A DNA stretch of 64,000 nt from Deltaproteobacteria bacterium (GCA_040218735.1 JAVJQW010000023.1:512001-576000), one strand, 5' to 3'; counted from the stretch's first letter, positions 3,324 to 44,006 are shown. The notes: generated by a model from the sequence alone, not told the origin. Translations and numbers: made by a program.

Positions 3324-4337
3324 ATGACGGAGGCGGGGGCGGGGTCGTCGTATCGACGCATCGAATCGGAAGAAGAGGTCGACTTCGCGGAGCTCGGACT
3401 GATCGGCGGCGACCCGAGCTTTCTGCATTGTCTGTCGCTCGCACGTAGGTTCTCGCGAGGCGTCGCTCCGATCCTCGTCTACGGCGAAACCGGTACCGGA
3501 AAAGAACTCATCGCACGTGCGATCCACTACGCCGGACCGCGCAGCGGCGGGCCGTTCGTCCCCGTCAACTGCGGCGGGATTCCGGAGTCACTCGTCGAGA
3601 GCGAGCTCTTCGGCCACGTACGCGGCGCCTTCACGGATGCCTACGCCGAGCAACGCGGGCTGGTTGCACTCGCCGACTGCGGAACGCTGTTCCTCGACGA
3701 AGTCGACAGCCTTTCACCCCGAGCGCAGACGGCGCTTCTGCGGTTCGTCCAGGACCGACGGTTCCGCCCGGTGGGTTCCGAACGCGATGCATCCGCCGAT
3801 GTCGCGCTCGTAACGGCATCGAACCGAAGCCTCGGCAAACTCGTCGAAGCCGGTCAGTTCCGACGTGACCTGTTCTTTCGCCTCGACGTCGCGACGCTCC
3901 GTGTCCCGCCGCTCCGTGAACGCTCGGGGGACATTCCCGATCTCTGCCGACACATCCTCGCGAAGCTAGGCGCAACGTATCGGTGTCCCGCGAAGATCAT
4001 CCACCCGCCCGACGCCCAACGTCTGCAGGAGCAACCTTGGGTTGGCAACATCCGCGAGCTCGAGAACCGACTGCACCGCGCCTGGCTCGTGAGCGACGGA
4101 CCGTACCTCGAGTTCGAGTGGGAGACGGCGCCGGACGAGCCTCACGCCGAGCTCGATCTCAAGAAGGTCAAGCGCGAGGCCGTCGCCGCGGCGGAGCGTC
4201 GTGTCCTGTTGGCGCTGATGAAGCGTACGCAGGGCAACGTATCGCGCGCTGCCGCGCTCGCCCAACACGAACGGCGAGCGTTCGGTCGCCTCCTCAAGAA
4301 ACACGGAATCGATCGAAACGAGTTCATCAAGCGATGA
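3324..4337 (+). CDS. Sigma54-dependent enhancer-binding protein (AAA+ and Fis-type HTH) lacking an N-terminal sensor domain
   Basis: Walker A GETGTGKE, ESELFGHVRGAFTDA, LFLDEV, FRRDLFFRL, WVGNIREL and C-terminal GNVSRAA HTH. Confidence 0.93.
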   Translation: MTEAGAGSSYRRIESEEEVDFAELGLIGGDPSFLHCLSLARRFSRGVAPILVYGETGTGKELIARAIHYAGPRSGGPFVPVNCGGIPESLVESELFGHVRGAFTDAYAEQRGLVALADCGTLFLDEVDSLSPRAQTALLRFVQDRRFRPVGSERDASADVALVTASNRSLGKLVEAGQFRRDLFFRLDVATLRVPPLRERSGDIPDLCRHILAKLGATYRCPAKIIHPPDAQRLQEQPWVGNIRELENRLHRAWLVSDGPYLEFEWETAPDEPHAELDLKKVKREAVAAAERRVLLALMKRTQGNVSRAAALAQHERRAFGRLLKKHGIDRNEFIKR

Positions 4338-6289
4338 CGGCCGCGACCGACCGCGGAATGGCGCTCGAGTGGGATCGTCTGCACCAGATCCTCGTCGATG
4401 CAGCGAGCGGCTCATCGAGCTCGGAGGAGGTCGCCCGAATCGAGGATGCGCTTCGACCGCTGGGGAGCCCGCTACGTTCGCTCGGCGCACGCTTCGAGCT
4501 GACCGGGTTCGAACGCGACACACTCCTGCTCGCCTTGTCCGTCGAAGCATCACTCGACTCGGCACGAAACGTCGCGTCCCTCAATGCGCCACGGGACTCC
4601 GCGCTGGTCACCGTTGACCTCGCGCTCCGGTTGTTCGCCCCCGGCGGCGATCACCGAAGACGTGGCCGAACCGCGCTCGGCCCTGACGGGAAGCTCTTCG
4701 CCGAGGGGTTGCTCGAGTGGGCGGGGCCTGCGTTTGGTTCTCACCTCGCCCGACCCTTCCGAGTCACGCGCGTAGTGTTGGAGCACTTCCTCGCGGACGT
4801 GACGTCGATACCGTCGGGATGTCGAATGCTCACGGACGGAGAAACGGCGCCCGAAGCTCAGGGACTGGCCGCAGCGCTGTCGGCCGACGCCAACCCACCG
4901 ATCACGATGGTCGTCGGTACGATCGCCGCCGAACCGGAGGTCACGGCCCTCGCTGTCTCGAGCGCGCTATCGCGGCCGATGCTCGTCGTGGATCTCGACG
5001 AGGCGGAGGAAGCCGAGGTCGACCCAGTCGCAGTGAGGGCTCGGGCGCGCCTCGAGCGCGCGACCGTCTACCTACGTCACGTCTGGAGATCGCCGGCCCG
5101 CCTTCGGTGGGTTCGCCGTGTGAGCTACGGGGCGCCGATCTTCGTCGAGACACGCCCGGATGACGATTGGTCCTGGAGCACGACGCGGCTCGCGGTGACC
5201 GCGATCCACTGCTCGGAACCGGACACTCGCGCGCGCGTCGAACGATGGCGTGCCGTCCTTCGTGAGAGTGAAGTCACCATCGACGACGCCCTCATCGACG
5301 AGGTTGCGACCAGCTTCGTCCTCTCGCGCGAGCAAGTGAGACTCGCGGTTGGGCACGCGCGCGTCGCGACCGCCGCGGAACGGGGGCTCACGGACACACT
5401 CGACGCCGAGGAGCTCCGCGCAGCGTGCCGAGCCCGACTCGATCATGACCTCGCCGCCGTGGCGACGAAATGCGAGCGACGCCAAACGTGGGACGATCTC
5501 GTCCTCCCCGACGTCACAAAGCGACGACTTCACGACTTCGTCCATGCACTGAAGCACCGATCGCTCGTCTTCGAGACGTGGGCGCTGGCGGACCGTATCG
5601 GAGGCACGACGGGGATCTCGGCGCTTTTCACCGGCGCGTCCGGTACGGGAAAGACGATGGCCGCCAGCGTCGTCGCGCGCTCGGTGGGATTGGACATCTA
5701 CCGAATCGATCTCGCGAGTGTCGTCAGTAAGTACATTGGCGAGACCGAGAAGAACTTGGACCGAGCATTCGGAGCGGCGCGCCGCGCCAGCGCCATCCTC
5801 TTCTTCGATGAAGCCGAGGCGCTGCTCGGAAAACGCTCGGAGGTGAAGGACGCACACGACCGGTACAGCAACATCGAAGTCGCGTATCTCCTTCAGCGAC
5901 TCGAAGCGCACCCAGGCGCGGTGATCTTCGCGACGAACCTCGCCAAGAACCTGGACGCCGCATTTGCGCGTCGGATGCACTTCGTCGTCGAGTTCCCTCG
6001 TCCGGATCCAAAGCTCCGTCTGGCGATTTGGCGTTCTCTGCTCTCGGACCGCGTCCCTGTCGCCGCCGACGTCGACCTCTCGGTTCTCGCGGAGCGATTC
6101 GAGACCACCGGGGGCGAGATTCGCAACGTCCTGCTGGACGCCGCCTTCCTGGCGGCGCGCGGCGGGCGCCCCATCTCGATGTCGAACCTGATGGTCAGCA
6201 TGGCACGCCATCTCCGGCAGGAGGGCCGCCTCCCGACCGCCTCGAGCTTCGGAGCGTTCCACGACGCCGTTGCGGAGGCGCTACTCTGA
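4334..6289 (+). CDS. eCIS-associated AAA+ ATPase (Afp15/Pvc15-like), copy 1
   Basis: WDDLVLP, LFTGASGTGKT, VVSKYIGETEKNL, LFFDEAEALLGKRSEVKDAHDRYSNIEVAYLLQR. ATG overlaps the regulator stop (ATGA). Confidence 0.9.
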   Translation: MTAATDRGMALEWDRLHQILVDAASGSSSSEEVARIEDALRPLGSPLRSLGARFELTGFERDTLLLALSVEASLDSARNVASLNAPRDSALVTVDLALRLFAPGGDHRRRGRTALGPDGKLFAEGLLEWAGPAFGSHLARPFRVTRVVLEHFLADVTSIPSGCRMLTDGETAPEAQGLAAALSADANPPITMVVGTIAAEPEVTALAVSSALSRPMLVVDLDEAEEAEVDPVAVRARARLERATVYLRHVWRSPARLRWVRRVSYGAPIFVETRPDDDWSWSTTRLAVTAIHCSEPDTRARVERWRAVLRESEVTIDDALIDEVATSFVLSREQVRLAVGHARVATAAERGLTDTLDAEELRAACRARLDHDLAAVATKCERRQTWDDLVLPDVTKRRLHDFVHALKHRSLVFETWALADRIGGTTGISALFTGASGTGKTMAASVVARSVGLDIYRIDLASVVSKYIGETEKNLDRAFGAARRASAILFFDEAEALLGKRSEVKDAHDRYSNIEVAYLLQRLEAHPGAVIFATNLAKNLDAAFARRMHFVVEFPRPDPKLRLAIWRSLLSDRVPVAADVDLSVLAERFETTGGEIRNVLLDAAFLAARGGRPISMSNLMVSMARHLRQEGRLPTASSFGAFHDAVAEALL

Positions 6290-6290: not shown

Positions 6291-9200
6291 ATGGGCCCAC
6301 CGTCCAAACGAAAGGCCAAGGCGCTCGTCCCAAGCGGCGGTACACCACTCCCCGCGAAGACGCGTCGCCGCTTCGAGTCGGCGATGAACGTCGACCTCCG
6401 CGACGTCCGGACCCACGCTTCGCGCGACGTTGGTGAACATGGAGCGCGGGCCGTGACGATCGGGCGACACGTGTTCGGGCCTCCGAGCCTGTTCGCGCCC
6501 GATGCCAAAGACGACGTTCGAACCCTCGCCCACGAGCTGACCCATACGGTCCAGCAGCAGGAGCGCTCGCCCCACGGGGCGCTCGAGCGCACCGCGCCTC
6601 GCTCGCTCGAAGAGCGCTACGCCCGCCGCGTCGCCGACGTCGTCTCGACGGGCCGCCCCGTCGATCCAGCGTGGCTTCGGTATCGATCACCTCGCGCGTT
6701 CGTCGCCTACGACGACGAACCCACCGATGCGGATCGCGCCGCGGCCGCGGACCTTCGCCTCGCGGTTCAGGCCCGAGACCAGGCGGCGGGACTTCGTGTC
6801 CTGCGAGCCAACACGGGCCCGGCGATGCACCGCGTTCGGGCGGCGTACGGCGAGGACTTCGTTCCGGACCTGCGCCAGCTCTTTCGCTACCGGGCCCGCC
6901 ACCCGAATGGGCTGAGCGACCTGATCCTCCGAACGGTGCTGCCGGCCGGAACCGAACCCTGGGGCGAGGCCCGCGCGCTCCTCGGTGACGCGCTCACCCT
7001 CGAAGAGGAGCTCCGGACGCTCGAGGGCATCATGAGCTGGAACGTCGCGGCGTTCTGGCGCGTCCTCGAAGAAGCCGACGACGAGCACGTGCTTCGGATG
7101 TTCGAGGCGCAGGGTGTCGAGCCCGAAGAAGGTGATCGACCTACGAGCAACCTGGCCGGTGTTCGGGCGCTGATCGAGAGCGCGCTCGGAGACTCGGAGC
7201 GCTGGCTCGCGAACAACGTCAACGTGCAGCGCGCCATGCGCATCCTGCTCGCGAAGGCAAACCGCGCCCGCGCGGCGCGACGGGCGCGCGGGGTCGAAGC
7301 GCCCCGGACCGATGGCGACGATGCCGACGACGGCCACTTCGACGACCCGCTCCTCGAGGCACACGTCGACCTCGTGTGGAGCCGAATCGTCGAGGCCGAC
7401 CGACGTTGGGGCCCAGCCTTCGAAGCCGAGCCGATGGCGTCCCGCGCGTACCTCGCGTTGGCCGACCTCGAGGCGATAGAACGTCGGGCGATCGGCGTCC
7501 GGATTCGTGCGCGGACGTGGTCCGGATTCGACAGCGATATCGTTGCGCGCCTCGAGGAGATCGCGGACGAGCGGGACGACGCGCAGGCGCTCTCGCTCGC
7601 GATGCGGCAAGCGCTCACTGAGCGCCACCACGACGCCTACGGAATGCAGCTCGCCACCGAGCGCGCCGGCACCCTCGTCCACCGTGCCCGTACTCGGGAC
7701 CTCGAGCGACCACCGACGCCCCCGGGCGTGGAGGTCCCGTCGTTCCTGGAGTTCGGCGCACCGCCGTCCGAAGGCTCGACGCGCGACATCCTCCACGACC
7801 CTGTGCTCCTCGAGCTCCTCCTCGATCACTCGGGGGAGCCGATGAACGTCGGAGGGCAATACATCGAGTGGATGCGCTCGATGGGAATGACGACGGGGGA
7901 GGTCGCCGAGTACCAGATGCGCGGTGTCGGAGACTTCGACGAGCTGTACACGGTCGTCGAGGGCGTTGCACCCGCCGAGCGCTTCAGTCTCGTTCACTTC
8001 AACGCCAACGGCCGGGCGGCGATGCAACGCGCCAACCTCACCGCCGAGCAGGACCGCATGATCTGGGCGCTCGTCAGTCAAGGCGGCCCTTCGCTGCTAC
8101 CGGGGCTCGACGCGGAGAACGACGGTCTCATCGCGGCTCGGCATCTTCTCGCGGCGGCACGCGAGGAACGACCTGACCGCGTCTTCGCCGTTCTGCGAAG
8201 CCTCGACGAACCCACCCGGACCGCGATGAGCCAAACCGAGGCCTACGCCGAGGCGCTCCGCCACCTGGAACGGAGCGACATCGAGGGACGCGTGCTCGCC
8301 GGGAACATCCGACGTGTCGTCCTGCGAGGCGAGCTGCAAGAAGCCCTCGAAGCGTACGCGATCCGACCGGGTACGACGCCGCGGATTCGCGACCGAAGCG
8401 CGTTCGCGGAGCTGATCTCCCACGAGCTCGACCAGGGCGGCGGACGAAGCCGGCAGGTCGAGATCCGTCGCGGTTTTGTCCTCCACCAGCGGAGCCTGCG
8501 CCACCCGGACCTCGAGCTCTCCACGGGGGATCAAGCGCTCGTCGACGCGTACCGTGACTACGCGAACTTCATCGAAGGCGAGGACAACGAGGACCAACAA
8601 CCCCTGTGGAACGTATTGCTCGGCGCGCCCCGCGTCGTCGGTGGCCAGCAGGACCTCGATCCCAACATGGAGGCGGACTTCATGTTCTACCGCCTCCAGC
8701 AATTCGCCGGTCTCCGCGGAGCCGCCGTCGCGCCCTGGGGTTGGGCCCTGCACGATCTCGACGAAGCCACGGTCGGGTTCACGGCGCTCTACGAACGTGT
8801 CCGGCCCGGCGGCGTCAGCCCCTCCGACCTCGCCGAGCTCGTGCTCCGCTACCACGCGGCGATCCGCGCGACCGAAGCCTACCGTGATGCGAACGAATCG
8901 CTGGCTTCGGACGTCGCGTCGATCGTGGCGTGCGTCGTCGGCGTCGCTGTCGTCACCGTGCTCAGCGGCGGCACGCTCGGACCGGTCGCGATCGCGGCCG
9001 TCGCCGGTCTCGCCGGCGGCTCTGCCGCGGCCATCACGGGAGCGGCGCTCCGGCACGAATCCAGCGGCGAAGACGTCGCCACCGACTTCGCGCTCGGCGC
9101 GGTGGAGGGAGCGTTGGCGATCACCGGCGAGGCCCTCGCGGCCCGAGCCGTTCGAGGTCTGGGCCTCGCCGCCGAGGGCGCGGCGGAGGTCGCGACGATG

Positions 9201-11195
9201 TCGGCCGGCGCGACAGCGCGTGCGGCGGGAACTCGCGCGATTCGAAGCACGGCTGCGCGCGGCGCCGAGGTCGCCGTGCGCGGCGCGATCGACGGGGCCG
9301 TCGGCGGCGCAGGGGGCGAGCTGTTTCGGTCGGCGCTCGACGAGGCCACGTGGGATCGGGGCGTCAGCGAAGCCATCGCCCGAATCTTCCAGGCGACGCT
9401 CCGCGGCGCCGCCATGGGCGCAACATTCGGTGGCGCGACCGGGGGGGTGATCTTCGGCGCTGGCGAGGCCTTCAATCGCGTCGCGTCACGTCACGGTACA
9501 CGCGCCGCCCTCGACATCCTCGGCGCCTTCGACGGTACGGAGCTCGGCGTCGGCTACGTCCGCGGATTGGACGAAGCGACGCAGGACGCCCTCTTCCGCG
9601 CGCGCGCAGCGCATAGCATCGGACGCGACGACATCGCCCGGGACCTGCTGACCCGCGAAGCGCGCCTCACTCCGACCGACGCGGACGAGATCCTCGATGC
9701 GCTGCGGGCGCGCGCCGATCTCGCCCGACGGGTCACCTCCGATATCGACCGCACGATCGACGACGATGTCGCCGCGGCGCTCGGTGACGAGCTCGGCGTA
9801 CCGATCCGGGTCGATTCGGATCTGGCCGGCCATCGGCACCGCATCGAGGTCGACTATCGCCTCGGCGTGTGGGGCTCGCCGGATGCGCTCACGATTCGCG
9901 TCGCGCCCGGCACTCCGGTGGGCGACGTCATCGCGCACCAGGCGGTCGTGCGTCGGATCCGCGATTTCGGCCGCGCCTCGCGCAGCTTCCGCGGCTTCTT
10001 CGAGCGCGCGCACGCGTTCTTGCGCGGCGCGAGCGACACGATGCCGCTCCGGGCGGAGCGCCTCGCCGAGCTCGACAAATACGGGCTGATGATCGAGGCC
10101 CGCCAGCGTGCGCTGACTGGAGAGGCGCTCTCGGACGAGCTCGCCGAGCGCCTCGAACGAGAGATCGCCGAGCTTCGTCGTTGGCGGGCCCACTTCGCCG
10201 AACAGCTCGACGAAGTCGGCGCAGGACAGGGGGTCATCCGCTCGGAGGGTGAGATGGACTTCTCCGAGGAAGCGATGCGCGCGCGATGGGAGCGCGACCT
10301 CGCCGAGCCGGATCTGATGGACGACGCGCTCCCGACCGTGACGGAGGCTCAGGACGCGGCTGCGACGTCGCGCTACCGCTATTCGTCATCGACGCAGCTC
10401 CCCGTCGGGACGACGGCGGACGAGGTCCGCGACGCGTTTCGCACGGTTCACTTCGACGGCCGCGGCGCAGAGAGCTTCGGTCAGTTCGAACACGAGTTGA
10501 GGTCGTACGTCGCCTTGGGCGTGATCAGCGAAGCCGACATCATGGAAGTCATCACTCGGCGCCTCAACGGAACGCAGGTCTCGGGCAGGGCCCGCGTGCT
10601 GGGCCCGATCGTTCGCGATGTCCGCCGCATGGCGCGTGCCTCTGCGCTCCGGGAGATCGAGGAGGGTTCACTCGATCTCCTCGAGGTGCTCGACGTTCTA
10701 CCGCCGTTCGGCAAGGGGGACGTGTTCGAGTCCTGGTTCTCACGTCACGGCGGACCCGGTATCGAACAGATCTCGGTCGACGCGCGGCGACTCCGAGAGC
10801 AAGGCCCCACCCTCGCGGGCGACCGTCGGATCGATCGCATCGAAGCCATCAACGGGGACGAGCTCGACGCCGCGACCGAGGACCGGATCCGTCGAATGCT
10901 CGCCGGCGACACGACGGCCGCTCAGGAAGGTCCGATCCCCAGCCTGCGCGTGCGCGAGCTCAAGGCCGGACGTTTCACCGGCGATCATCGCGCGCAGCTT
11001 CGCGACAACCTGCGTCTCCTTCGGCTCGGCGCCGTGAACGAAGTGAGCCTGACGATCACTCGGCTGGACGCGATCGACCCGTCGCAGCTCGCCTGGCTGC
11101 AGCGGCAACTCCGGAGGTACCGCGGTCAGTTCGTGATCGAGGTCGTCAACGGCCCACGAATCACCTCTTCCGCACAGCTCGGCAGGATGCGATGA
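6291..11195 (+). CDS. DUF4157 (eCIS core domain) large putative toxin with central hydrophobic segment and C-terminal PD-(D/E)xK nuclease-like domain
   Basis: N-terminal ARAVTIGRHVF..LAHELTHTVQQ (HExxH). Gly/Ala-rich hydrophobic stretch at about 8915-9050. C-terminal GDVFE..RRID..RELKAG..QL. Confidence 0.8.
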   Translation: MGPPSKRKAKALVPSGGTPLPAKTRRRFESAMNVDLRDVRTHASRDVGEHGARAVTIGRHVFGPPSLFAPDAKDDVRTLAHELTHTVQQQERSPHGALERTAPRSLEERYARRVADVVSTGRPVDPAWLRYRSPRAFVAYDDEPTDADRAAAADLRLAVQARDQAAGLRVLRANTGPAMHRVRAAYGEDFVPDLRQLFRYRARHPNGLSDLILRTVLPAGTEPWGEARALLGDALTLEEELRTLEGIMSWNVAAFWRVLEEADDEHVLRMFEAQGVEPEEGDRPTSNLAGVRALIESALGDSERWLANNVNVQRAMRILLAKANRARAARRARGVEAPRTDGDDADDGHFDDPLLEAHVDLVWSRIVEADRRWGPAFEAEPMASRAYLALADLEAIERRAIGVRIRARTWSGFDSDIVARLEEIADERDDAQALSLAMRQALTERHHDAYGMQLATERAGTLVHRARTRDLERPPTPPGVEVPSFLEFGAPPSEGSTRDILHDPVLLELLLDHSGEPMNVGGQYIEWMRSMGMTTGEVAEYQMRGVGDFDELYTVVEGVAPAERFSLVHFNANGRAAMQRANLTAEQDRMIWALVSQGGPSLLPGLDAENDGLIAARHLLAAAREERPDRVFAVLRSLDEPTRTAMSQTEAYAEALRHLERSDIEGRVLAGNIRRVVLRGELQEALEAYAIRPGTTPRIRDRSAFAELISHELDQGGGRSRQVEIRRGFVLHQRSLRHPDLELSTGDQALVDAYRDYANFIEGEDNEDQQPLWNVLLGAPRVVGGQQDLDPNMEADFMFYRLQQFAGLRGAAVAPWGWALHDLDEATVGFTALYERVRPGGVSPSDLAELVLRYHAAIRATEAYRDANESLASDVASIVACVVGVAVVTVLSGGTLGPVAIAAVAGLAGGSAAAITGAALRHESSGEDVATDFALGAVEGALAITGEALAARAVRGLGLAAEGAAEVATMSAGATARAAGTRAIRSTAARGAEVAVRGAIDGAVGGAGGELFRSALDEATWDRGVSEAIARIFQATLRGAAMGATFGGATGGVIFGAGEAFNRVASRHGTRAALDILGAFDGTELGVGYVRGLDEATQDALFRARAAHSIGRDDIARDLLTREARLTPTDADEILDALRARADLARRVTSDIDRTIDDDVAAALGDELGVPIRVDSDLAGHRHRIEVDYRLGVWGSPDALTIRVAPGTPVGDVIAHQAVVRRIRDFGRASRSFRGFFERAHAFLRGASDTMPLRAERLAELDKYGLMIEARQRALTGEALSDELAERLEREIAELRRWRAHFAEQLDEVGAGQGVIRSEGEMDFSEEAMRARWERDLAEPDLMDDALPTVTEAQDAAATSRYRYSSSTQLPVGTTADEVRDAFRTVHFDGRGAESFGQFEHELRSYVALGVISEADIMEVITRRLNGTQVSGRARVLGPIVRDVRRMARASALREIEEGSLDLLEVLDVLPPFGKGDVFESWFSRHGGPGIEQISVDARRLREQGPTLAGDRRIDRIEAINGDELDAATEDRIRRMLAGDTTAAQEGPIPSLRVRELKAGRFTGDHRAQLRDNLRLLRLGAVNEVSLTITRLDAIDPSQLAWLQRQLRRYRGQFVIEVVNGPRITSSAQLGRMR

Positions 11196-33085: not shown

Positions 33086-33538
33086 TCACTCGCTGGTCGC
33101 GAGCTCCATCGTTAGACCTTCGTGGCAGAGCTCGATCGTCTCGACGGCGACGTCGTTGCCCGTTGCGTTCAGCGACGGGCCCTCGATCTTGTTCAGCCAC
33201 GCGTTTTCGAAGTTCCAGCGCATGACGGGAACGTGCGCTTCGTTCTTGAGCGTGATGGTCCCGTTGCGACGGTCGTCCAGACCGTTCGCAACGTTCCCGT
33301 ACCAATCCCACATCGTCGTATCGCTGATGTAGCCGCGCTTCAGGGTGATGTTGCTGTACTTACGAAGGCCGACGAGTTTGCGGACCGTATTGGGTCGGTC
33401 CGTCCCTTCGCGGTACTCCACGGGATCACCTTCAGCGGTCAGCCCGCTGACTTCGCTGAACGAACCCACGGTCGTGCCATCGATCTCGACCTCGAAGTTG
33501 TAAGTACGAAAAGGATCTCGTCTCTGATCAGTAGACAT
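33086..33538 (-). CDS. Major tail tube protein (T4 gp19-like, Afp1-like)
   Basis: RRDPFRTYNFEVEIDG..FSEVSGL..EYREG..KYSNITLKRG..RRNGTITL..GPSLNATGNDVAVETIEL. Confidence 0.95.
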   Translation of the reverse strand: MSTDQRRDPFRTYNFEVEIDGTTVGSFSEVSGLTAEGDPVEYREGTDRPNTVRKLVGLRKYSNITLKRGYISDTTMWDWYGNVANGLDDRRNGTITLKNEAHVPVMRWNFENAWLNKIEGPSLNATGNDVAVETIELCHEGLTMELATSE

Positions 33539-38051: not shown

Positions 38052-38653
38052 GGGAGTCGCTCCGCGACGCCGGTTTCGACCGAAGCGCTCCGCACGGGCG
38101 GAACGGGTTGGAGCGGGCGATGCGAGTCGACGAGGACGACGCTCACCTCGTAGGAGACGCAGAGTTGGTACGGGCGCTCCAGGGCGTCCCATACACGCGT
38201 GATCTCCTCGACACCGTGGGACTCCAGGCGAACGGTCAGGCGCGCACCCGTCCCCGCGAAGTCGTCGCGCAGCAGCGCGCCCTCGACGATCGGGATGTCG
38301 TGGAACGTTTGGAGCACGCGCCCCATCAATGCTTGCTCCATCTCCACGGCCCGGTTGCCGTCCGCCAACGGCGTGATCAGGTAGTGCAGGCGTAGCGGGA
38401 GCGGTGCGCGTTGCTCGCGATCGAGACCGACGCGTGTCGGTGACATGTTGAGACGCTGTTCGTCGCGGACGATTCGGTAGAGCCACAGTGAGATGCCGGT
38501 GTCGCCCGCGGTCAGCATCTCTTGGGGAGTCGCGAGGTTCACCGTCATCCCACCGCCAGCGACGAAGGACGGAGCGAGCAGCGGCGTGGCTGCGAACTCG
38601 CTTCGGAGGAGCCCCCGCAGCGTCAGACTCGTGGCGCGAAGCGCAGTGAACAC
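38048..38653 (-). CDS. DUF4255 / Afp16-Pvc16 cap (tail terminator) protein
   Basis: ISLWLYRI..N..PLPLRLHYLITP..EQALMGRVLQTFHDIP..RVWDAL..PYQLCVSYEVSVV. Confidence 0.9.
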   Translation of the reverse strand: MFTALRATSLTLRGLLRSEFAATPLLAPSFVAGGGMTVNLATPQEMLTAGDTGISLWLYRIVRDEQRLNMSPTRVGLDREQRAPLPLRLHYLITPLADGNRAVEMEQALMGRVLQTFHDIPIVEGALLRDDFAGTGARLTVRLESHGVEEITRVWDALERPYQLCVSYEVSVVLVDSHRPLQPVPPVRSASVETGVAERLP

Positions 38654-38662
38654 ACGACCTCC

Positions 38663-38914
38663 TCACCTTGGATCGCGACGAGCGAGAAAGAGCGTCTCAC
38701 CGTCCAGACCTTCGCGCGCCTCGAGCAGCCCCGCGTCGGCGAGCGCATCGACGGCGCTCTGAAGCTGTTCGAACGTGACCCGGTGACGGAGGCGTCGAGG
38801 CAGCCACCAATCGTGAATGCCCTGGAGGGTGTCGGCCGCGCGCGGGTTCGCGGCGACGTGCGATCGGATCGCATCCTCGACCTCCGCGACCGCCTTGTCG
38901 TCAGGAACGCCCAC
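38663..38914 (-). CDS. Small winged-helix-like protein heading the eCIS operon
   Basis: HVAANPRAADTLQGIHDWWL..LQSAVDALADAGLL..DG..LF has a wHTH-like pattern. GTG start. Confidence 0.7.
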   Translation of the reverse strand: MGVPDDKAVAEVEDAIRSHVAANPRAADTLQGIHDWWLPRRLRHRVTFEQLQSAVDALADAGLLEAREGLDGETLFLARRDPR

Positions 38915-38934
38915 ACGATTCGAGGCGACGTCTC

Positions 38935-38950
38935 TACAAGGCGCGCGCCA
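38935..38950 (-). promoter_or_regulatory. Putative sigma54-like promoter of the eCIS structural operon
   Basis: Minus strand TGGCGCGCGCCTTGTA (GG-N10-GT, TTG at -15..-13) directly upstream of the first operon gene. Confidence 0.5.
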
Positions 38951-39015
38951 CGATCGAGCTCGCCGTCAAACGGCCGACTTCATTGATCGAAGCCTCGAAT
39001 CCGCCTTCGGACACC

Positions 39016-39052
39016 GGGTCCCTGCGGACCCAACTGGGTCATGAGCGACCCA
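39016..39052. promoter_or_regulatory. Tandem palindromes GGGTC-N6-GACCC (candidate enhancer-binding protein UAS)
   Basis: GGGTCcctgcgGACCC (39016-39031) and GGGTCatgagcGACCC (39036-39051), 20 bp apart, between two divergent sigma54-like promoters. Confidence 0.6.
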
Positions 39053-39083
39053 CCCCATCGCCGACGAACGCGGCGCCCTCCGC

Positions 39084-39099
39084 TGGCATCTGCGATGCA
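39084..39099 (+). promoter_or_regulatory. Putative sigma54 promoter of the right DUF4157 toxin
   Basis: TGGCATCTGCGATGCA = GG-N10-GC. In-frame GTG at 39112. Confidence 0.6.
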
Positions 39100-39111
39100 G
39101 CGACGCGCGAC

Positions 39112-42100
39112 GTGGGCGATCGACCGCACCGTGAGCATCTGCCGGCGCGCCGACCCCGCCGACGACCCGCGCCATCGGCGGCGACACCGCGTCCCACGAT
39201 GGCGCCTCCCTGCCCCTGCGCGTCCTGTACGAGCAAACGCGCGCAGCGCGCAGCGGCCGACGGCGTACGAGGTGCCGAGCGGTCGCTACCGCACCTGAGC
39301 CGAGTGCAGGCTGCGTTCGGCCCGCATGATCTGTCGGACGTGCGCGCGAAGGTCGGTGAGACGCCGACGACGCGGCTTCTTTCCGCGCACGCCTTCACCG
39401 CGAACAACCGAGTCGCCTTCGCGCGCGAACCGAATCTTCGACTCGCTGCACACGAGGCTGCGCACGTGGTTCAGCAACGCGCCGGCGTCGTCCCCGCGGG
39501 GCTCGGACGCCGCAACGATCGGTGGGAGCGACACGCCGACGCGGTCGCAAATGCCGTGGCCGGCGGGCGTTCGGCGACGCCCCTGCTCTCGGGACTTCCG
39601 CGCCGAGCTCCATCGAAGGACGCCGTGCAGCGTGAACACGAAGGCGGCACGGACACCGACCTCGGCGCGGTCGTCGACCGAATGGTCGCAGCGTACCGCA
39701 CGGGCGACGTCGCCGATGTCGCGGCGGAGCTTCAAGGCAAGAGCGTCACGCAGCTGCGGTTGATGCGAAGCCTGTTCGACGAGAACGCGAGCGCCGACCT
39801 CGCCCGATGGTTCGCATCCCGGACGAGCTCGACGACCGCGAGCACGATCGCAACGGTCGCGGGGGTCATCCTCGGAACGCTCCCGGGGGCGACGTTGCTC
39901 GCGCCCCTGATTCCTCTTGGAACGACGATGGTCGTGCAGTCGGGCGCGTCCGATCGAGCCGCTGCGGAGACCGGCTTGAGACGACTCTGGCCGGCGCTGC
40001 CGCTGATCGATCGCCTCGAGATCTACATGAACCAGTTCACGGAGATCGAGCAGGCACAGCTCGACATCATCCGATCGGCGAGCGCGGAGGAACGCAGCAC
40101 TGCACGGCGTGAGTACGCGCGACTGCTCGCGGTCTACGCGGCGATGTCGCCCGCCGAGGAGTACGAAGCCCGCAAGCTGATGGACCCCGACGACATGGAG
40201 TTCTCGGTCGGCCGGCTGATCGTTCGTGCGTCGGGTTTCTTCATGGACGATGAAGATCCGGTCTTCGACGCATTCATGGATCTCACACGCACGCAGCGCG
40301 AGTCTGTTTGGCGGACGCACAACGGCGGACTGTATCGACTGCTCAGCCTGCAGAGGTTCAACCTCCTCCAGACACTGGTCCACGGCACGGAAGCCGAGGC
40401 GCTCGTCGCGCGACTTCGCCTCGCCACCGACAACCGCATGGATGACATGGACGCCGTCGGGCGGGTGGTCGAGCGGGCGCGGCATCTCCTGCGTGAGCAA
40501 GCCACCTTGCGCGCTCAGATTGCGTCCGAGTCCCTGTCCGGCCCGGACCTAACGGCGGCCAACGCGCGCCTGCGCCAGCTCGGAGAGCTGGAGTCACTGC
40601 TCGAGGTCGAGCGAACGTCGGAAGGAGACATCGACACCACGACGTTCATGGGTCGGCTCTACCAAGCGTCCGGCTCCGGAGATCAGTTCGGCACGTGGGC
40701 GCGTTCGCTCGGTGCCGATCCGGAGGAGATCGCCAAACAGCGAATCATCGCGGCCTCCGGAGCCTTCGTGGACGCCTCGGCGATCCAGCGGGCTCTCATG
40801 GACATCCAGGTGCAGCTCGAGCCCGGTCCACCGGACGAGACCCCTGCGCAGCTCCAGATACGACAGCGCCGGGCGAACAACGATGCGCGGACTCGCGTCC
40901 TCGAGGACACACGAGTGCAAGCCATCTTGCGGAGGCTCGGCCACCAGGGGCCATCCGGAGGTGGCGAGCTCGCCGACGTTCGGCGTTTGGCGGGCGCGAC
41001 CCGATACGACGAGCTCGTGAGCGAGTTCGACGAGGCGCGGCGCGCGCTCAGATGGTCTCAGATGTACCGGGCGACCCTGGAGATCGCTCAGACGGACGCG
41101 TACCGATCGCAGTTTCGGACGGACTCGCGACAAGCGTGGTCGGCCTACTCCTGGCTCAACGGCGCACGCAAGGACATCGTCGACCGGATCCTCGACACGC
41201 GGCGGATCCCGATCAACCTCGTCCTCGAGTCGACGGGCAACGTCGAGTCTCTCCAGGCGATCCTCAGCACGCTCGACGAACGAACGCGCGGAGAGCTTCG
41301 CTTGGGGTACTGGCTGGACCGAACGGAGCGCACCCCCGCCGACGACACGCAGCGCACCGCGCTCACGGCGTTCCGCGACTTCGAGAGACGCGTGCGCGCT
41401 TCGCAGTCCTTGGGCGTGGCGAGTGTCGAAATCGAAACCGCGGCAGGCACCGTGAGCCGCTCGGGCGTTCAGGACATCCTCGATGCCGCGTTGGGCGCCG
41501 CCCCGACGGAGGAGGAGATGGACTCCGACGAGGGCCGATTCCGCGCGGCGGAGCTGCTCTACCATCGACAGCGCGAGCGCCTCGCGCTGCGACGCGGTCT
41601 TGCGGCCGCCTTCTCGGAGACCGACGAAACGATGGTCGCCGCAGCGCGAGAGTTCGCAGCGCTATGGCTTCGCATCGAGGGCACGGGCCGGGTATCGACC
41701 ACGAACTTCGCCGCCCTGTCGCGACTGCACGAGCGGTTCGAAGGTCGCGCGAGAGAGTTCGACGAGGCGAACAATCGAATCGGCGAGATCGCCGGGATCG
41801 TCGCGTCCACGGTCGCGGCGCTGGTGGTCGTCGCCGCGACGGGCGGCGCCGCCACGGTACCCGCGATCGCCGCCGCTGCGGCGGCCGGCGCGAGCGGACG
41901 TGTCTTCGCGCGGGCGATGTTCGGCGGCGACCACTACAACGCAGCCAGCGGCGAAGGGGCGCGCGACGCCCTCATCGGAGCGATCGACGGCGCACTCGCG
42001 GTTGCCTCGACCGCGCTGGCGGCGCGCGCCACGCGAATGATCGGTCTGTCGGGCCGCGCGCTCGCGCACGGGGCCGCCGAGACCGGCGGGCTGGCCGCGC

Positions 42101-43647
42101 AGCAGGCGACGCGCCCCTTCGGCCGGAGGCTCGCTGCGAGCGTGGTCGAAAACGCCATCGACGGTGTCGTCTCGGGCACGATCAGCGAGGGCGTCGTCGC
42201 GATGACGGACGACCGAACTTGGCGAAGCGGAATCTGGCAGGGCCTGATTCGTGTCGGGCAAGCCGCCCTGGTCGGTGGCCTGGCGGGGCTGGGTGGCGGC
42301 GCTGCGATGGGCGCGGTCACGACGATCGCCGGCCGGGGCGCGAGGGGGCTGCGCAATGCGCTGATCGGCGAGCCCGCCGAAGCCGCGATCGAGCGCGCAG
42401 GTGCACGCGAGACACTCGACGCGGCTCGACGCGCGAGCCAAGGCGGCAACTACGACGAAGCCCGTCGCCTCGTGGGAGAGCTCGAACCGCACTTGAACGC
42501 GCGGCAGATTCAATCGCTATTGAGCGAGCTCGGCGAGCCGCCACCTGGCGCGGTCCTCTTTCGACAGACGATCGAGCTGGATGGCGTGCGGCACACGCTG
42601 AAGTTGGTCGCTACGCAGGGCGACGAAGCGATCTTCGTCCTGTGCAGCAGCTGTCGCCACGCCGTGTCCGTCCTGTCGGACCTGATCCAGACCGCCGACG
42701 CCAGCGGACTGACCGCGCTCAAGCGAGAGTTGGAGATCGACCTCGCCCGGATGCAGGCGTTCGAGACCCGGCTGCGGAGCGGAACGCGGGTGCTCCCGCA
42801 GGAGCTTCGCGACGAGTTCACGCACCTCGCGGGTCGCCTACGCGGGCACGCGACGGCCAACCCCGCGATGGCCGACGATCTGAACCGCCTCTCCGGCGTT
42901 CGAATCGACGCGCCCGACAGCATCCCGGCGCCGACACCGCAGGCAGAGCAACGGATCCTGTCGCAGCTCCGGCGCGCCAGCATCCCAACGCCCGATGACC
43001 CGATGGTTCCACTGTCCGACTTGGTCGGGGCGTTCACTCGCGCGCAGGATCTCGGTACGGAGGTCGCGCAGCATTACCGATCGATGCTCGACCGACGGCT
43101 GGTCGACGATCTCGAATCGGTCATCCGGCGACGCCGCGCCATTCAGGCGACGGACCCCGCGGCACGGTCTGCGGCCGACACCGCATACCTCCACGGCGGA
43201 GCCGCGCGGGACCTCGAGACGATCGGGGATGCCGCGCGGGACGTCGGGATCGACCTGCGCCCGCTTCGCGGCATCCACGGGCCCACCGTCGATCCGGCCA
43301 CCCTCCGGGGCGACGCCGGGCGCGCCTACCGACACATCGTGTCGGGAGGCTCTGACGCGCGACATCTTCAGGTGGCGAGCCGCGAGGAGGCAGAGCAGCT
43401 GCTGCGCGCCCTCCGAGGCAACTTCCCCGACCTCGCCGACGCCACGGGCTTCATCCCGTCGCACTCCAAGAGGCTCCTGGGTTCGAAGGATCGAATCTTC
43501 CACTGGGACGACATGGTCGGGGCGGATGGCCGGACGTTGATCGACCACCCGACCGGACACGACCACGCGCGTTTTCGACACCTCCAGATCCACATTGGTG
43601 ATAGCCAATATCGTATCAACTGGGGCGACCCACTCTTCGACCCATGA
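39112..43647 (+). CDS. DUF4157 (eCIS core domain) large putative toxin with hydrophobic segment and His-rich C-terminal toxin-like domain
   Basis: CPCASC, AHAFTANNRVAF..LAAHEAAHVVQQ..WERHADAVA. Hydrophobic stretch at about 41785-41900. C-terminal FHWDD..H..H..HLQIH. Start uncertain (39112 or 39199). Confidence 0.8.
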   Translation: MGDRPHREHLPARRPRRRPAPSAATPRPTMAPPCPCASCTSKRAQRAAADGVRGAERSLPHLSRVQAAFGPHDLSDVRAKVGETPTTRLLSAHAFTANNRVAFAREPNLRLAAHEAAHVVQQRAGVVPAGLGRRNDRWERHADAVANAVAGGRSATPLLSGLPRRAPSKDAVQREHEGGTDTDLGAVVDRMVAAYRTGDVADVAAELQGKSVTQLRLMRSLFDENASADLARWFASRTSSTTASTIATVAGVILGTLPGATLLAPLIPLGTTMVVQSGASDRAAAETGLRRLWPALPLIDRLEIYMNQFTEIEQAQLDIIRSASAEERSTARREYARLLAVYAAMSPAEEYEARKLMDPDDMEFSVGRLIVRASGFFMDDEDPVFDAFMDLTRTQRESVWRTHNGGLYRLLSLQRFNLLQTLVHGTEAEALVARLRLATDNRMDDMDAVGRVVERARHLLREQATLRAQIASESLSGPDLTAANARLRQLGELESLLEVERTSEGDIDTTTFMGRLYQASGSGDQFGTWARSLGADPEEIAKQRIIAASGAFVDASAIQRALMDIQVQLEPGPPDETPAQLQIRQRRANNDARTRVLEDTRVQAILRRLGHQGPSGGGELADVRRLAGATRYDELVSEFDEARRALRWSQMYRATLEIAQTDAYRSQFRTDSRQAWSAYSWLNGARKDIVDRILDTRRIPINLVLESTGNVESLQAILSTLDERTRGELRLGYWLDRTERTPADDTQRTALTAFRDFERRVRASQSLGVASVEIETAAGTVSRSGVQDILDAALGAAPTEEEMDSDEGRFRAAELLYHRQRERLALRRGLAAAFSETDETMVAAAREFAALWLRIEGTGRVSTTNFAALSRLHERFEGRAREFDEANNRIGEIAGIVASTVAALVVVAATGGAATVPAIAAAAAAGASGRVFARAMFGGDHYNAASGEGARDALIGAIDGALAVASTALAARATRMIGLSGRALAHGAAETGGLAAQQATRPFGRRLAASVVENAIDGVVSGTISEGVVAMTDDRTWRSGIWQGLIRVGQAALVGGLAGLGGGAAMGAVTTIAGRGARGLRNALIGEPAEAAIERAGARETLDAARRASQGGNYDEARRLVGELEPHLNARQIQSLLSELGEPPPGAVLFRQTIELDGVRHTLKLVATQGDEAIFVLCSSCRHAVSVLSDLIQTADASGLTALKRELEIDLARMQAFETRLRSGTRVLPQELRDEFTHLAGRLRGHATANPAMADDLNRLSGVRIDAPDSIPAPTPQAEQRILSQLRRASIPTPDDPMVPLSDLVGAFTRAQDLGTEVAQHYRSMLDRRLVDDLESVIRRRRAIQATDPAARSAADTAYLHGGAARDLETIGDAARDVGIDLRPLRGIHGPTVDPATLRGDAGRAYRHIVSGGSDARHLQVASREEAEQLLRALRGNFPDLADATGFIPSHSKRLLGSKDRIFHWDDMVGADGRTLIDHPTGHDHARFRHLQIHIGDSQYRINWGDPLFDP

Positions 43648-44006
43648 CTCGCCGAAACCACCAACACCTGACGTCCGACGTCATCGCCGCCCTACGGAAG
43701 GGTCAGACGAGCTCGGTCGAGCTACCCACGGAGCGCCCTGGCCACCGCGCCTGGGTCGGCGTACACGCCCGGTTTCCTCGAGGCGTGCGGATCGCGGACG
43801 CGGAACCCAACGGCTTCCACGTCCGGCGCTTTGCGATATCGGACGAATGGATCGCTTGCGAGGGGTACCCGGTCGTCCAGGACGCGGTGGACTTCGTAGG
43901 CTTCGATGCCGCCACCCTCGACGAGCTCGACGCCAAGCTCGACACACTCCTTCCGGCCGGGGCGATGCTGCGCCCCGACGGCGTCGACTCGGATTACCCG
44001 TTCTGA
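43644..44006 (+). CDS. Putative immunity protein (120 aa)
   Basis: ATGA overlap with the toxin stop. Small globular ORF ending DYPF. Function is inferred from position. Confidence 0.6.
   Translation: MTRRNHQHLTSDVIAALRKGQTSSVELPTERPGHRAWVGVHARFPRGVRIADAEPNGFHVRRFAISDEWIACEGYPVVQDAVDFVGFDAATLDELDAKLDTLLPAGAMLRPDGVDSDYPF

Follow-up and report, generated by a model that had tools for sequence, protein, structure and literature searches.

The 64,000-nucleotide stretch of Deltaproteobacteria DNA analyzed here (the window) carries a complete extracellular contractile injection system (eCIS), an injection machine resembling a phage tail, flanked by two effector cassettes. In each cassette, a modular giant protein with a predicted, swappable toxin tip is followed by a translationally coupled gene for the putative cognate immunity protein, a reading to which we assign a probability of roughly 0.7. 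The architecture of the region, the paralogy of the giants, the shuffling of tips and scaffolds, and the linkage of each tip to its downstream gene can be read directly from the genomes compared. The sequence-only reading of this DNA had described a full Afp/PVC-like operon flanked by two giant HExxH/DUF4157 proteins, and the Pfam and NCBIfam matches bear this out. The arrangement is a well-supported new example of a published concept (Zhang et al. 2012; Geller et al. 2021).

The eCIS Operon

The operon at 12091-38914 (minus strand) is a complete Afp/PVC-like eCIS operon, running from the Pvc16_N cap gene to an AAA ATPase gene, with the following features identified by Pfam and NCBIfam matches:

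12091-14184, minus strand, AAA+WHD ATPase
14139-15752, minus strand, CIS_TMP (tape measure), a weak match of 20.6 bits against a cut-off of 27.8
15638-18598 and 18601-20436, minus strand, two CIS13-like N-termini (fibre), 33-35 bits against a curated cut-off of 370
22847-24925, minus strand, Tail_P2_I
24922-26895, minus strand, Baseplate_J
26900-27298, minus strand, gp25
28053-28571, minus strand, Phage_base_V
28568-29890, minus strand, Phage_GPD
29773-30498, minus strand, CIS_tube and LysM
30695-31201 and 33086-33538, minus strand, two copies of T4_gp19
31198-33072 and 33552-36854, minus strand, two copies of the sheath
38048-38653, minus strand, Pvc16_N (DUF4255) cap/tail terminator, 201 aa (PF14065, E 3.8e-36; GC3 pattern)

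An Afp/PVC-like eCIS has been defined by the presence in one operon of a sheath, an inner tube, a gp25/Baseplate_J wedge, a VgrG-like spike, a tape measure, an Afp15-like AAA+ ATPase, and an Afp16/Pvc16 cap. This set is found here, although the scores of the tape measure and the fibre N-termini stay under the curated cut-offs of their models. A match to a PAAR model has not been observed within the operon. A long ORF of 591 aa at 36891-38666 has been rejected as spurious; it encloses the Pvc16_N gene in another frame. A second eCIS operon of the same genome lies ~7.6 kb outside the window, and the assignment of cargo to the particle of the operon described here (eCIS-1) is therefore presumptive.

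The Left Cassette and Regulation

The left cassette brings two genes in addition to its giant, and a divergent intergenic region lies beside the right end of the operon:

3324-4337, plus strand, sigma-54 enhancer-binding protein that lacks a receiver domain, 337 aa (PF00158, E 2.4e-57; AAA_lid_14; weak HTH_8)
4334-6289, plus strand, AAA_L, a second Afp15/Pvc15-like AAA+ ATPase, 651 aa (PF00004 and PF22977 WHD)
38936-39098, no strand assigned, divergent intergenic region with two sigma-54-like -24/-12 candidates

The regulator is the first gene of the cassette and shares an ATGA overlap with the ATPase gene, the third such junction of the region. AAA_L and the operon ATPase at 12091-14184 are paralogues (44% identity over 641 aa, E 2e-149), and the genome holds three Afp15/Pvc15-like AAA+ ATPase genes. 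This extra AAA-plus-regulator cassette is a new item. The sigma-54-like candidates, 38936-38950 (minus strand) and 39084-39098 (plus strand), each have two mismatches to TGGCAC-N5-TTGC and point to their own operon. The motif is not enriched across the window (31 found, 37 expected), and the two sites are put forward as candidate promoters as a lead only.

The Giant Proteins A and B

The two giants share a head and a middle module and differ in their tails:

6291-11195, plus strand, protein A, 1634 aa: DUF4157 head, helical region, mid-core, proximal tail module, and candidate C-terminal toxin domain
6345-6563, plus strand, PF13699 (DUF4157/eCIS_core/PVC-metallopeptidase) of A, residues 19-91, 65.5 bits (cut-off 22)
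8628-9500, plus strand, mid-core module of A, residues 780-1070, from BLASTP to B
9501-10262, plus strand, proximal tail module of A, residues ~1071-1324, common to a subset of the family
39112-43647, plus strand, protein B, 1511 aa from GTG: DUF4157 head, helical region, mid-core, and tail with candidate C-terminal toxin domain
39298-39486, plus strand, PF13699 of B, residues 63-125, 36.0 bits (cut-off 22)
41503-42366, plus strand, mid-core module of B, residues 798-1085

The DUF4157/PVC-metallopeptidase domain is a known marker of eCIS cargo. A and B are its only PF13699 matches in the 11.6-Mb genome, both above the gathering threshold, and both retain the HExxHxxQ motif, as HELTHTVQQ in A (HExxH at residue 81) and HEAAHVVQQ in B. 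The start of B is uncertain, giving a length of ~1450-1511 aa: the GTG at 39112 is an arbitrary choice, 39199 offers an ATG, and P0008, the form in the database, begins 64 codons later.

The middle regions of the two proteins had been aligned by eye, and BLASTP recovers the same relationship, with A795-1034 matching B813-1050 at 34% identity (E 4e-12); the DUF4157 heads align at E 1e-3. Beyond residue ~1050, no BLASTP alignment between A and B has been obtained, in agreement with the earlier claim that their C-termini are unrelated.

The mid-core is an Ala/Gly-rich module of ~290 aa with two adjacent hydrophobic helix-length segments (Kyte-Doolittle 2.2-2.5; maximum of 2.46 in a 19-aa window of A) and no Pfam or NCBIfam family match. 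It has been found in 144 of the 158 collected proteins, and in 171 representative clusters it always follows a head of the DUF4157 or annexin type and precedes a variable tail. This unmodelled module, common also to annexin-headed toxins, is a new item. Annexin repeats are present in 15 of 37 scanned family members, and the GxGT[DE] annexin motif has not been found in A or B. The proximal tail module of A is common to three homologues (P0017-P0019) and the Zoogloea loci L003-L007, and occurs alone in four other proteins (P0041, P0056, P0093, and P0157). CIS_tube is present in all five host genomes of the giant family that were tested, in three of them on the same contig, ~12-25 kb from the giant gene.

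Exchange of Tips Among Homologues

Homologues of B (P0009-P0012; 37-43% identity) align to B residues ~36-1145/1201 and then diverge, one of them ending in Ntox4. Across the family the same gradient is seen: among 103 full-looking members, BLAST links 78% of pairs through the core, 50% through the head, and 11% through the tail. In Zoogloea, the tails of loci L004 and L007 share 93% identity over 248 aa and are unrelated past that point. Across five Zoogloea loci, the tip switches beside a directly downstream gene that encodes another DUF4157 protein and stays ~90% identical; an adjacent immunity gene is therefore not a family-wide feature.

The genomic features of polymorphic toxins sensu Zhang et al. 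(2012) have been observed in this family. A conserved scaffold carries variable C-termini, the C-terminal domains of A and B (A-CT and B-CT) each occur on differently built scaffolds, and the adjacent gene co-varies with the toxin domain as a genomic linkage. Homologues of the downstream genes of A and B (dA and dB) are not found beside 14 mid-core loci with other tails. These comparisons support the view that the C-terminal modules of A and B behave like polymorphic-toxin tips and that each downstream gene keeps to its tip rather than to the scaffold. Co-variation of C-termini and downstream genes among homologues had been named as a check on the initial proposal, and its result is favorable: the scaffold is kept, the tips are swapped, and the downstream gene follows the tip. 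On this sequence evidence, A-CT/dA and B-CT/dB are candidates for two new toxin-immunity families.

The C-Terminal Domain of A and Its Downstream Gene

The tip of A and the gene that follows it are:

10458-11192, plus strand, A-CT, residues 1390-1634, candidate PD-(D/E)xK nuclease toxin (GDVFE...RIDRIE...RELK...QLRDN)
11192-12160, plus strand, dA, 322 aa, candidate immunity protein of A-CT, ATGA-coupled, of no known family

The ATGA-overlapping small gene previously described after each giant holds in part. The overlaps are present, at 11192-11195 for A/dA and at 43644-43647 for B/dB, but only dB (120 aa) is small, and dA, at 322 aa, is large for an immunity protein. At its 3' end, dA extends 70 nt into the converging AAA gene. 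Both dA and dB have a codon-position GC like the pattern of real genes (0.73/0.46/0.82). No Pfam or NCBIfam match has been found for dA, and no likeness to the Tox-REase-7 immunity families HEAT repeats, Imm23, and Imm54 has been noted.

Homologues of dA (39-44% identity) have been found in 8 of 300 other genomes of the phylum (the f9 genomes), each just downstream of an A-CT-like domain. These eight genomes belong to one family and two genera and therefore count as approximately one lineage. The proteins upstream of the dA homologues (1322-1377 aa; full ORFs examined in three of the eight) combine annexin repeats and a mid-core with an A-CT-like C-terminus, and their C-termini match A-CT with an hhalign probability of 95.2% (E 2.7e-8). 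A differently built carrier is found at the metagenome locus L072, where a DUF4157-headed protein of 1748 aa without a mid-core has an A-CT-like end (E 8.9e-16) and is overlapped by 4 nt by a dA homologue (E 1.6e-83). With this locus and the f9 genomes, a dA family member adjoins nine of nine A-CT-like domains outside the window.

The Tox-REase-7 (PF15649) signature has been given as GxxxE, IxD, ExK, and Q (table in PMC3482391). A-CT resembles it in the order of elements, GDVFE, the Asp of RIDRIE after a hydrophobic strand, ELK, and QLRDN, and both domains are C-terminal in polymorphic toxins. GDVFE, ELK, and QLRDN are conserved in P0016, the f9 proteins, and the L072 protein. On the other hand, the Asp of A-CT directly follows the Ile ("ID" instead of "IxD"), ~30 residues are inserted between the D and ExK strands, and a Pfam search of the last 310 residues of A, with E-values of up to 5 allowed, does not recover PF15649. 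The only Pfam match is one of 14.8 bits (cut-off 25) in a homologous f9 protein. The atlas lead for A-CT is Tox-REase-7 (0.92, with 18 of 30 matches in the family), a score that is not calibrated for protein parts. The AF2 strand and helix order of A-CT is compatible with a restriction-endonuclease fold, and Foldseek searches with the AF2 models of A-CT and B-CT gave no fold match (best E-values 0.55 and 0.12). Because no PF15649 match exceeds the threshold, A-CT has not been filed as a Tox-REase-7 domain, only as a likely REase-fold relative. Its sequence most likely represents a PD-(D/E)xK nuclease distantly related to Tox-REase-7.

The C-Terminal Domain of B and Its Downstream Gene

The corresponding features of B are:

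42994-43644, plus strand, B-CT, residues 1295-1511, mobile His-rich toxin-like domain (FHWDD..G.DG..L..H.....H....HLQ)
43644-44006, plus strand, dB, 120 aa, candidate immunity protein of B-CT, ATGA-coupled

[quoted passage not shown] A profile built from the B-CT alignment (A6) gives eight strong matches in 20 family genomes. A dB-family ORF begins 0-45 nt after seven of the eight (two in G000, three in G001, and two in G013), and the 836 nt following the remaining match, in G007, contain no detectable dB-family ORF. G013 also has a tandem second dB copy, G001 has a 188-aa toxin fragment with a dB-like gene, and the genome of A and B itself carries a second predicted toxin-immunity pair on contig C20. 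A profile built from five downstream ORFs of relatives matches only dB among 683 six-frame ORFs (E 2.7e-5, the next being 4.4).

The AF2 model of B-CT has a pLDDT of 76, and no Foldseek or PDB match has been found for it; the domain is His/Asp-rich and probably a hydrolase. The complex of B-CT and dB has been modelled with a score of 0.74 (runs of 0.81, 0.74, and 0.09), against 0.02 for the best of three controls. Of 80 solved complexes, 58 attain this score, as do 2 of 110 mismatched pairs; these counts are rough because own alignments were used. Contact agreement between the runs is at least 72% and the partner pLDDT is at least 79. The modelled dB interface includes the invariant B-CT residues H170, D172, H185, H191, and Q198, and the model supports the binding of dB to the tip of B over its conserved residues.

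Proposed Mechanism and Alternative Explanations

The main reading predicts that the tips are toxic, that they are neutralized, and that the giants are loaded into the particle; the function of the mid-core and the type of target are likewise predictions. The products of dA and dB would keep the toxins harmless in the producer. The Afp15-like AAA+ ATPase, of which the left cassette brings its own copy, would unfold the giants and load them into the tube. Upon contraction the cargo would enter the target cell, where the head peptidase, the mid-core, or both may aid the release of the tip or its passage through a membrane, after which the tip would kill the target.

The sequence-only reading had taken self-immunity as a pointer to antibacterial or kin-directed use. 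This is not supported as written: a cytoplasmically produced nuclease calls for an antidote regardless of which organisms are preyed upon. The contrast drawn with the classic eukaryote-targeting systems is already found in Zhang et al. (2012, PMC3482391) and Geller et al. (2021, PMC8213781). It is possible, at somewhat below even odds, that the toxin-immunity pairs are real but that immunity protects only the producer cytoplasm before loading, the prey being eukaryotes (amoebae, other protists, fungi). Nucleases act on any cell, the Zoogloea tips switch without an adjacent immunity slot, and annexin repeats, which occur in the family, bind phospholipids in eukaryotes. Annexin repeats have also been proposed to help breach target membranes, and many PVC-type toxins have been described without immunity genes and as perhaps aimed at distant organisms (Zhang et al. 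2012, PMC3482391). However, the orphan and duplicated modules (the G001 fragment with its dB-like gene, the tandem dB of G013, and the C20 pair) are typical of inter-bacterial polymorphic toxin loci, and antibacterial eCIS toxins have been validated (Geller et al. 2021, PMC8213781).

A more specific proposal concerns the mid-core. It would be an undescribed membrane-insertion/translocation module that carries the C-terminal toxin across the target membrane after eCIS injection, a role likened to that of the translocation/entry domains of colicins and CDI systems, and the extra AAA+ ATPase would be a cargo-dedicated unfoldase. We regard this combination as rather unlikely.

It is improbable that dA and/or dB are chaperones or adaptors that keep the giants soluble and hand them to the AAA+ loader, or co-effectors, instead of immunity proteins. 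The hydrophobic helix-length segments of the giants might need shielding, dA is larger than would be expected of an immunity protein, and there has been speculation on chaperone roles around DUF4157 proteins (Danov et al. 2024, PMC11297309). However, the downstream gene tracks the tip and not the mid-core or the head: dB-family genes adjoin B-CT on carriers without DUF4157 and the mid-core, and the dA homologue at L072 follows a protein without the mid-core. The modelled dB interface covers the invariant His and Asp residues of the tip, and the tandem copies and orphan pairs are easier to reconcile with immunity.

Two adjacent transmembrane-like segments (Kyte-Doolittle 2.2-2.5), the membrane anchoring that Kodavali et al. 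(2014, PMC3894181) predicted for some annexin-toxin proteins of bacteria, and the existence of cytoplasmic and membrane-anchored CIS could also suggest that the giants are producer-membrane proteins, anchored by a mid-core hairpin and serving to tether a cytoplasmic CIS or set it off, with tips for regulated self-killing and downstream antitoxins, but this is very improbable given the tail-fibre-like genes, cap, and full Afp-like set of the operon, the location of DUF4157 proteins inside AlgoCIS tubes (10.64898/2026.05.27.728243), and tip shuffling with immunity, which is the pattern of exported polymorphic toxins.

Comparison with Known Systems

PVC-metallopeptidase-headed polymorphic toxins and their possible inter-bacterial use have been described by Zhang et al. 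(2012, Biol Direct, PMC3482391). A notable proportion of those toxins is reported without immunity genes, whereas both tips here have adjacent candidate cognate genes. A-CT, B-CT, dA, and dB give no above-threshold Pfam match to the toxin and immunity families listed there, and the available text of that paper does not mention a conserved mid-core separating head from tip.

Annexin-toxin fusions, in which annexin repeats, DUF4157, C-terminal toxins, and predicted transmembrane regions co-occur, have been described by Kodavali et al. (2014, PMC3894181). By architecture, the annexin, mid-core, and A-CT-like proteins found here fall in that set. However, the transmembrane regions are treated there as anchors and not as a conserved domain, and A and B are without the annexin motif.

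In AlgoCIS, the DUF4157 proteins Cgo1 and Cgo2 have been identified as lumen cargo (preprint 10.64898/2026.05.27.728243). They too combine an N-terminal region, DUF4157, and a variable C-terminal domain, with two cargos per system; Cgo2 is also large (1228 aa), and loading depends on an AAA+ protein. The giants described here match this cargo type in architecture and gene position. In contrast, the AlgoCIS loading signal is a disordered N-terminal stretch before DUF4157 where A has only ~18 residues, and neither a mid-core nor immunity genes are reported for Cgo1 and Cgo2 in the available part of the preprint.

The eCIS-associated toxins, or EATs (Geller et al. 2021, PMC8213781; Danov et al. 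2024, PMC11297309), also have an N-terminal DUF4157, linkers of more than 1000 aa, and toxins encoded beside eCIS operons. Antibacterial activity for some of them and one toxin-immunity pair have been validated at the bench (Geller et al. 2021), whereas the pairs of this locus are predictions. The present system also differs from the EAT systems in having a pair of paralogous giants around a single operon, with an additional AAA+ ATPase and a sigma-54 activator accompanying one of the giants.

The giant proteins and the left cassette

The giant DUF4157 proteins A (6291-11195; 1634 aa) and B (39112-43647; 1511 aa, counted from an arbitrary GTG), both encoded on the plus strand, pass PF13699 and are its only matches genome-wide. 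The sequence-only reading had aligned the middles of the two proteins by eye, and BLASTP confirms this similarity (A795-1034 vs B813-1050, 34% identity, E 4e-12), with the heads aligning at E 1e-3. The C-termini, described there as unrelated, indeed give no BLASTP alignment past about residue 1050. Each giant was also said to be followed by a small gene with an ATGA overlap; both overlaps exist, but the left gene, dA, encodes 322 aa and is not small. The open reading frames of dA and of its right-hand counterpart dB, the candidate immunity genes, are gene-like in their GC content by codon position. Annexin repeats are absent from A and B, as judged by the GxGT[DE] motif and by Pfam.

Four genes make up the left cassette: a sigma-54 activator, an AAA+ ATPase, A, and dA. 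The genome encodes three Afp15-like ATPases. The divergent region between the eCIS-1 operon and B contains two sigma-54-like sites, which are taken as promoter candidates and as a lead; across the window as a whole, the promoter consensus for sigma-54 shows no enrichment (31 matches vs 37 expected).

Regulatory and ATPase features
3324-4337, plus strand: sigma-54 activator without a receiver, ATGA-coupled to the next gene
4334-6289, plus strand: second Afp15-like AAA+ ATPase, 44% identical to the operon's own ATPase
38915-39111 (200 bp): two sigma-54-like -24/-12 candidates facing the two operons

The eCIS-1 operon and its surroundings

Pfam and NCBIfam searches identify a full Afp/PVC-like gene set on the minus strand at 12091-38914. 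The 591-aa open reading frame at 36891-38666 was rejected as a high-GC artefact with the wrong codon-position GC pattern, and the true gene inside it encodes the Pvc16_N cap.

Genes of the eCIS-1 operon
within 12091-38914, minus strand: AAA+WHD ATPase
within 12091-38914, minus strand: tape measure (weak match)
within 12091-38914, minus strand: fibre candidates, two proteins with CIS13-like N-termini and one collagen-like protein
within 12091-38914, minus strand: Tail_P2_I, Baseplate_J, and gp25
within 12091-38914, minus strand: spike parts Phage_base_V and Phage_GPD
within 12091-38914, minus strand: CIS_tube+LysM protein
within 12091-38914, minus strand: two gp19 tube proteins
within 12091-38914, minus strand: two sheath proteins, one of 1100 aa
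38048-38653, minus strand: Pvc16_N cap, 201 aa

The window lies on contig C9 of an 11.6 Mb genome and is GC-rich (64-72%). In the eCIS operon and its cassettes (about 3300-45600), GC at third codon positions ranges from 0.75 to 0.84, compared with 0.84-0.91 for genes at 49-62 kb and with 0.88-0.90 at 291-2968, a hint that this block in its entirety is an acquired island. The dA gene (plus) and the operon's AAA gene (minus) converge with a 70-nt 3' overlap (12091-12160). To the left of the cassette are two adjacent minus-strand genes for acidic proteins (291-1682 and 1715-2968), one with a Peptidase_C39-like domain (E 6e-15) and the other with a weak amidase-like match (E 0.0026). Directly after dB lies a gene for a 495-aa ASH/Ig-like domain protein (44057-45544), followed on the minus strand by a 1397-aa protein without any Pfam match (45594-49787); the gene at 50734-52443, also on the minus strand, encodes a fusion of a Ser/Thr protein kinase with an MshEN domain.

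About 7.6 kb past the right end of the window, on the same strand, begins a second complete eCIS operon (C9, about 583,500-606,300; locus records L045 7570-19000 and L046 1-11290). It encodes sheath, tube, spike, baseplate, fibre-like, and cap proteins and its own AAA ATPase, at 27-54% identity to eCIS-1. Downstream of it are genes of 1334 aa and 373 aa, both without PF13699, and a homologue (38% identity) of the sigma-54 activator. The assignment of A or B to one particle or the other is therefore inferred from position.

CIS_tube genes were found in all five host genomes tested, on the same contig and 12-25 kb from the giant in three and 165 kb away in one. An AAA gene upstream of the giants of Zoogloea, Ramlibacter, and Lamprocystis was considered as a dedicated loader. 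This candidate was rejected: with CIS_tube on the same contig at a distance of 12-25 kb, the simplest reading of the AAA gene is that it is the Afp15 ATPase of the operon itself. An extra AAA copy is clearly present only in this window.

A shared mid-core between head and tail

The last 1200 residues of A were searched with phmmer against 1.84 billion representatives (E up to 1e-3), which returned 171 proteins. One of these, P0016, has a match that extends to the C-terminus, four cover A524-1324, and most cover only A724-1064. A word-index search with the last 315 residues of A found A itself as the only match, and a full-length word search missed P0016 (42% identity), which phmmer recovered. 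In a local iterative search, 144 of the 158 proteins collected contained the mid-core, a hydrophobic module of ~285 aa. Its start typically lies 750-850 residues into the protein, and a tail of 300-650 aa comes after it. Rich in Ala and Gly, the module has two hydrophobic segments of helix length next to each other, and the motifs D..GA.DG and DE.TW are conserved.

The mid-core has no Pfam, NCBIfam, or PDB match. For both tails, the mid-core, dA, and dB, Pfam (E up to 5) and NCBIfam (E up to 1) give no meaningful family, and PDB sequence and profile searches with these queries and with the A6 (B-CT family) and A7 profiles return only chance-level matches. A name for the module is found neither in Pfam and NCBIfam nor in the relevant passages of the eCIS and annexin papers cited below, and an unnamed domain is not directly searchable.

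A Pfam scan of 37 members, a non-random sample consisting of the 37 shortest of 96 full-looking ones, found 15 with annexin repeats, 15 with PF13699, and one with an ADP-ribosyltransferase domain. A branch of the family without DUF4157 carries four to five canonical annexin repeats directly before the mid-core, with GxGT[DE] about every 73 aa and a best Pfam Annexin match of E 6e-69. Its members include P0105, P0114, P0127, P0139, and P0144, and its loci are L040 8367-12500, L041 10367-14335 (minus strand), and L042 5512-9555. Scanning the genome collection with a 5-sequence core alignment gave 14 mid-core loci; a metagenome scan with an alignment of the B scaffold gave 80 loci, mostly generic DUF4157 heads, with the mid-core in one.

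Variable tips on a constant scaffold

Relatives of B (P0009-P0012, 37-43% identity) align with it over B36-1145/1201 and then diverge; the C-terminus of P0010 is Ntox4. When 103 full-looking members are compared by BLAST (E below 1e-5), 78% of pairs are linked through the core, 50% through the head, and 11% through the tail, and the tail links are mostly limited to the first 60-250 residues of the tail. In five Zoogloea loci (L003-L007) the tails of the giants are 93% identical over 248 aa and then unrelated. At these loci the giant is followed by two more DUF4157 genes, encoding about 378 and about 1172 aa; the tail switches abruptly, yet the next gene stays about 90% identical, and there is no space for an immunity gene. 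Relatives of dA and dB are absent from all 14 mid-core loci that carry other tails.

The B tip and dB

Among 20 same-family genomes searched, two (G001 and G013) encode proteins of 578-752 aa that end in a match to residues ~1336-1503 of B, within its tip (B-CT, about 1295-1511). These carriers have no DUF4157, mid-core, or Pfam domain, and an open reading frame of 106-121 aa follows each with a 4-nt overlap. A profile built from five of these downstream frames finds dB as its sole match in the window (E 2.7e-5; next-best 4.4 among 683 six-frame open reading frames), and dB aligns with them end to end, including a common Y-(T)-P-F C-terminus. In profile searches of the same-family genomes, a dB-family gene lies directly downstream of seven of eight strong B-CT matches; the seven pairs include an orphan 188-aa toxin fragment, a tandem second immunity copy, and a second pair in the window's own genome. 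The match in G007 has no detectable dB relative in the 836 nt downstream. The second pair of the window's own genome lies on contig C20 (263699-264683; L043 9697-10798, minus strand), where a 263-aa, diverged B-CT-like frame (35% identity) adjoins a 122-aa gene 32% identical to dB. This pair is far from any eCIS gene looked for.

Alignment A6 of the B-CT family contains invariant FHWDD, G.DG, H185, H191, and HLQ, a pattern that suggests an enzyme. The AF2 model of B-CT (pLDDT 76, pTM 0.68) has no fold match, with nothing below E 0.1 in Foldseek against the PDB. An atlas lead for the B tip (small Ntox and HNH-EHHH clusters, 0.77-0.81) was dropped as below the informative level of the tool.

A complex of B-CT (residues 85-217 of A6) and dB (alignment A5) was modelled and scored 0.74, with three runs at 0.81, 0.74, and 0.09 and the best of three controls at 0.02. 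The 0.74 mark is reached in 58 of 80 solved complexes and 2 of 110 mismatched pairs, rough counts since our own alignments were used here. Contact agreement of the runs is at least 72% and partner pLDDT at least 79. The modelled interface contains, in A6 numbering, the invariant H170, D172, H185, H191, and Q198, as would be expected for an immunity protein blocking an active site. The model supports, rather than demonstrates, binding of dB to B-CT.

The A tip and dA

A sample of 300 other genomes from the phylum contained eight with dA homologues (39-44% identity), all from two genera of one family. At the three loci with full context, the gene upstream encodes a 1322-1377-aa protein with annexin-type GxGTDE motifs and the mid-core (E 1e-36 to 1e-40) and without HExxH. 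At all eight, the last ~270 residues of the upstream protein are homologous to A-CT, the tip of A at about residues 1390-1634 (hhalign probability 95.2%, E 2.7e-8, 218 columns), sharing the blocks kG..aE.W[YF], dRrID..E, vRELK, and Q..D, and a reciprocal profile search recovers the same eight genomes. In three of them the gene after the dA homologue encodes a GNAT acetyltransferase (L038 2224-2742; L035 948-1427, minus strand; L036). One of the 80 DUF4157-head metagenome loci, L072, encodes a 1748-aa DUF4157 protein without the mid-core but with an A-CT-like end (E 8.9e-16), and a dA homologue (E 1.6e-83) follows with a 4-nt overlap.

The atlas places A1320-1634 nearest to Tox-REase-7 clusters (score 0.92, 18 of 30 matches), and one of the eight homologues has a sub-threshold PF15649 match (E 0.036). 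The conserved elements of A-CT (GxxxE, D, ExK, Q) occur in the order listed for Tox-REase-7 in a table of PMC3482391, and its AF2 model, with a pLDDT of 70 from an alignment of only two sequences, has the expected helix-strand-strand-helix-strand order. On the other hand, Pfam does not detect Tox-REase-7 in A, and Foldseek with the A-CT model finds nothing below E 0.1 in the PDB. A-CT is therefore likely a PD-(D/E)xK nuclease, by prediction, but is not filed as a Tox-REase-7 member.

Comparison with known DUF4157 toxins

Sequence comparison gives good support for placing the locus in the DUF4157/eCIS polymorphic-toxin class, with A and B as candidate toxins. The toxin-immunity scheme of the sequence-only reading is sound but not new, having been in print since Zhang et al. 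2012 (PMC3482391) and Geller et al. 2021 (PMC8213781). The relevant passages of Zhang et al. present the PVC-metallopeptidase head as a marker of toxins exported via phage-tail-like systems, with polymorphic C-termini, annexin domains, possible inter-bacterial use, and immunity genes that are often missing. Those of Geller et al. name DUF4157 an eCIS core domain, describe linkers of >1000 aa, and validate antibacterial toxins and one immunity pair. Further elements appear in sections of Danov et al. 2024 (PMC11297309), where most DUF4157 toxins lack a second annotated domain; of the AlgoCIS 2026 preprint (10.64898/2026.05.27.728243), where DUF4157 cargo sits in the tube lumen and is loaded via a disordered N-terminus and an AAA+ protein; and of Kodavali et al. 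2014 (PMC3894181), which catalogues bacterial annexins that carry DUF4157 and toxin domains as well as predicted transmembrane regions.

What is new here is two candidate toxin-immunity families and an unmodelled, widespread mid-core. As a module between cargo tag and toxin, the mid-core may explain the long linkers of DUF4157 toxins, and knowing which parts of the giants are scaffold, tip, and antidote is of practical use for engineering eCIS particles. With an interface modelled for one pair, self-protection and target range become directly testable. In the passages of Geller et al. the general absence of immunity genes is called a mystery, most predicted eCIS toxins having no recognisable one; the two clean predicted pairs on eCIS cargo scaffolds, supported comparatively, bear on this puzzle.
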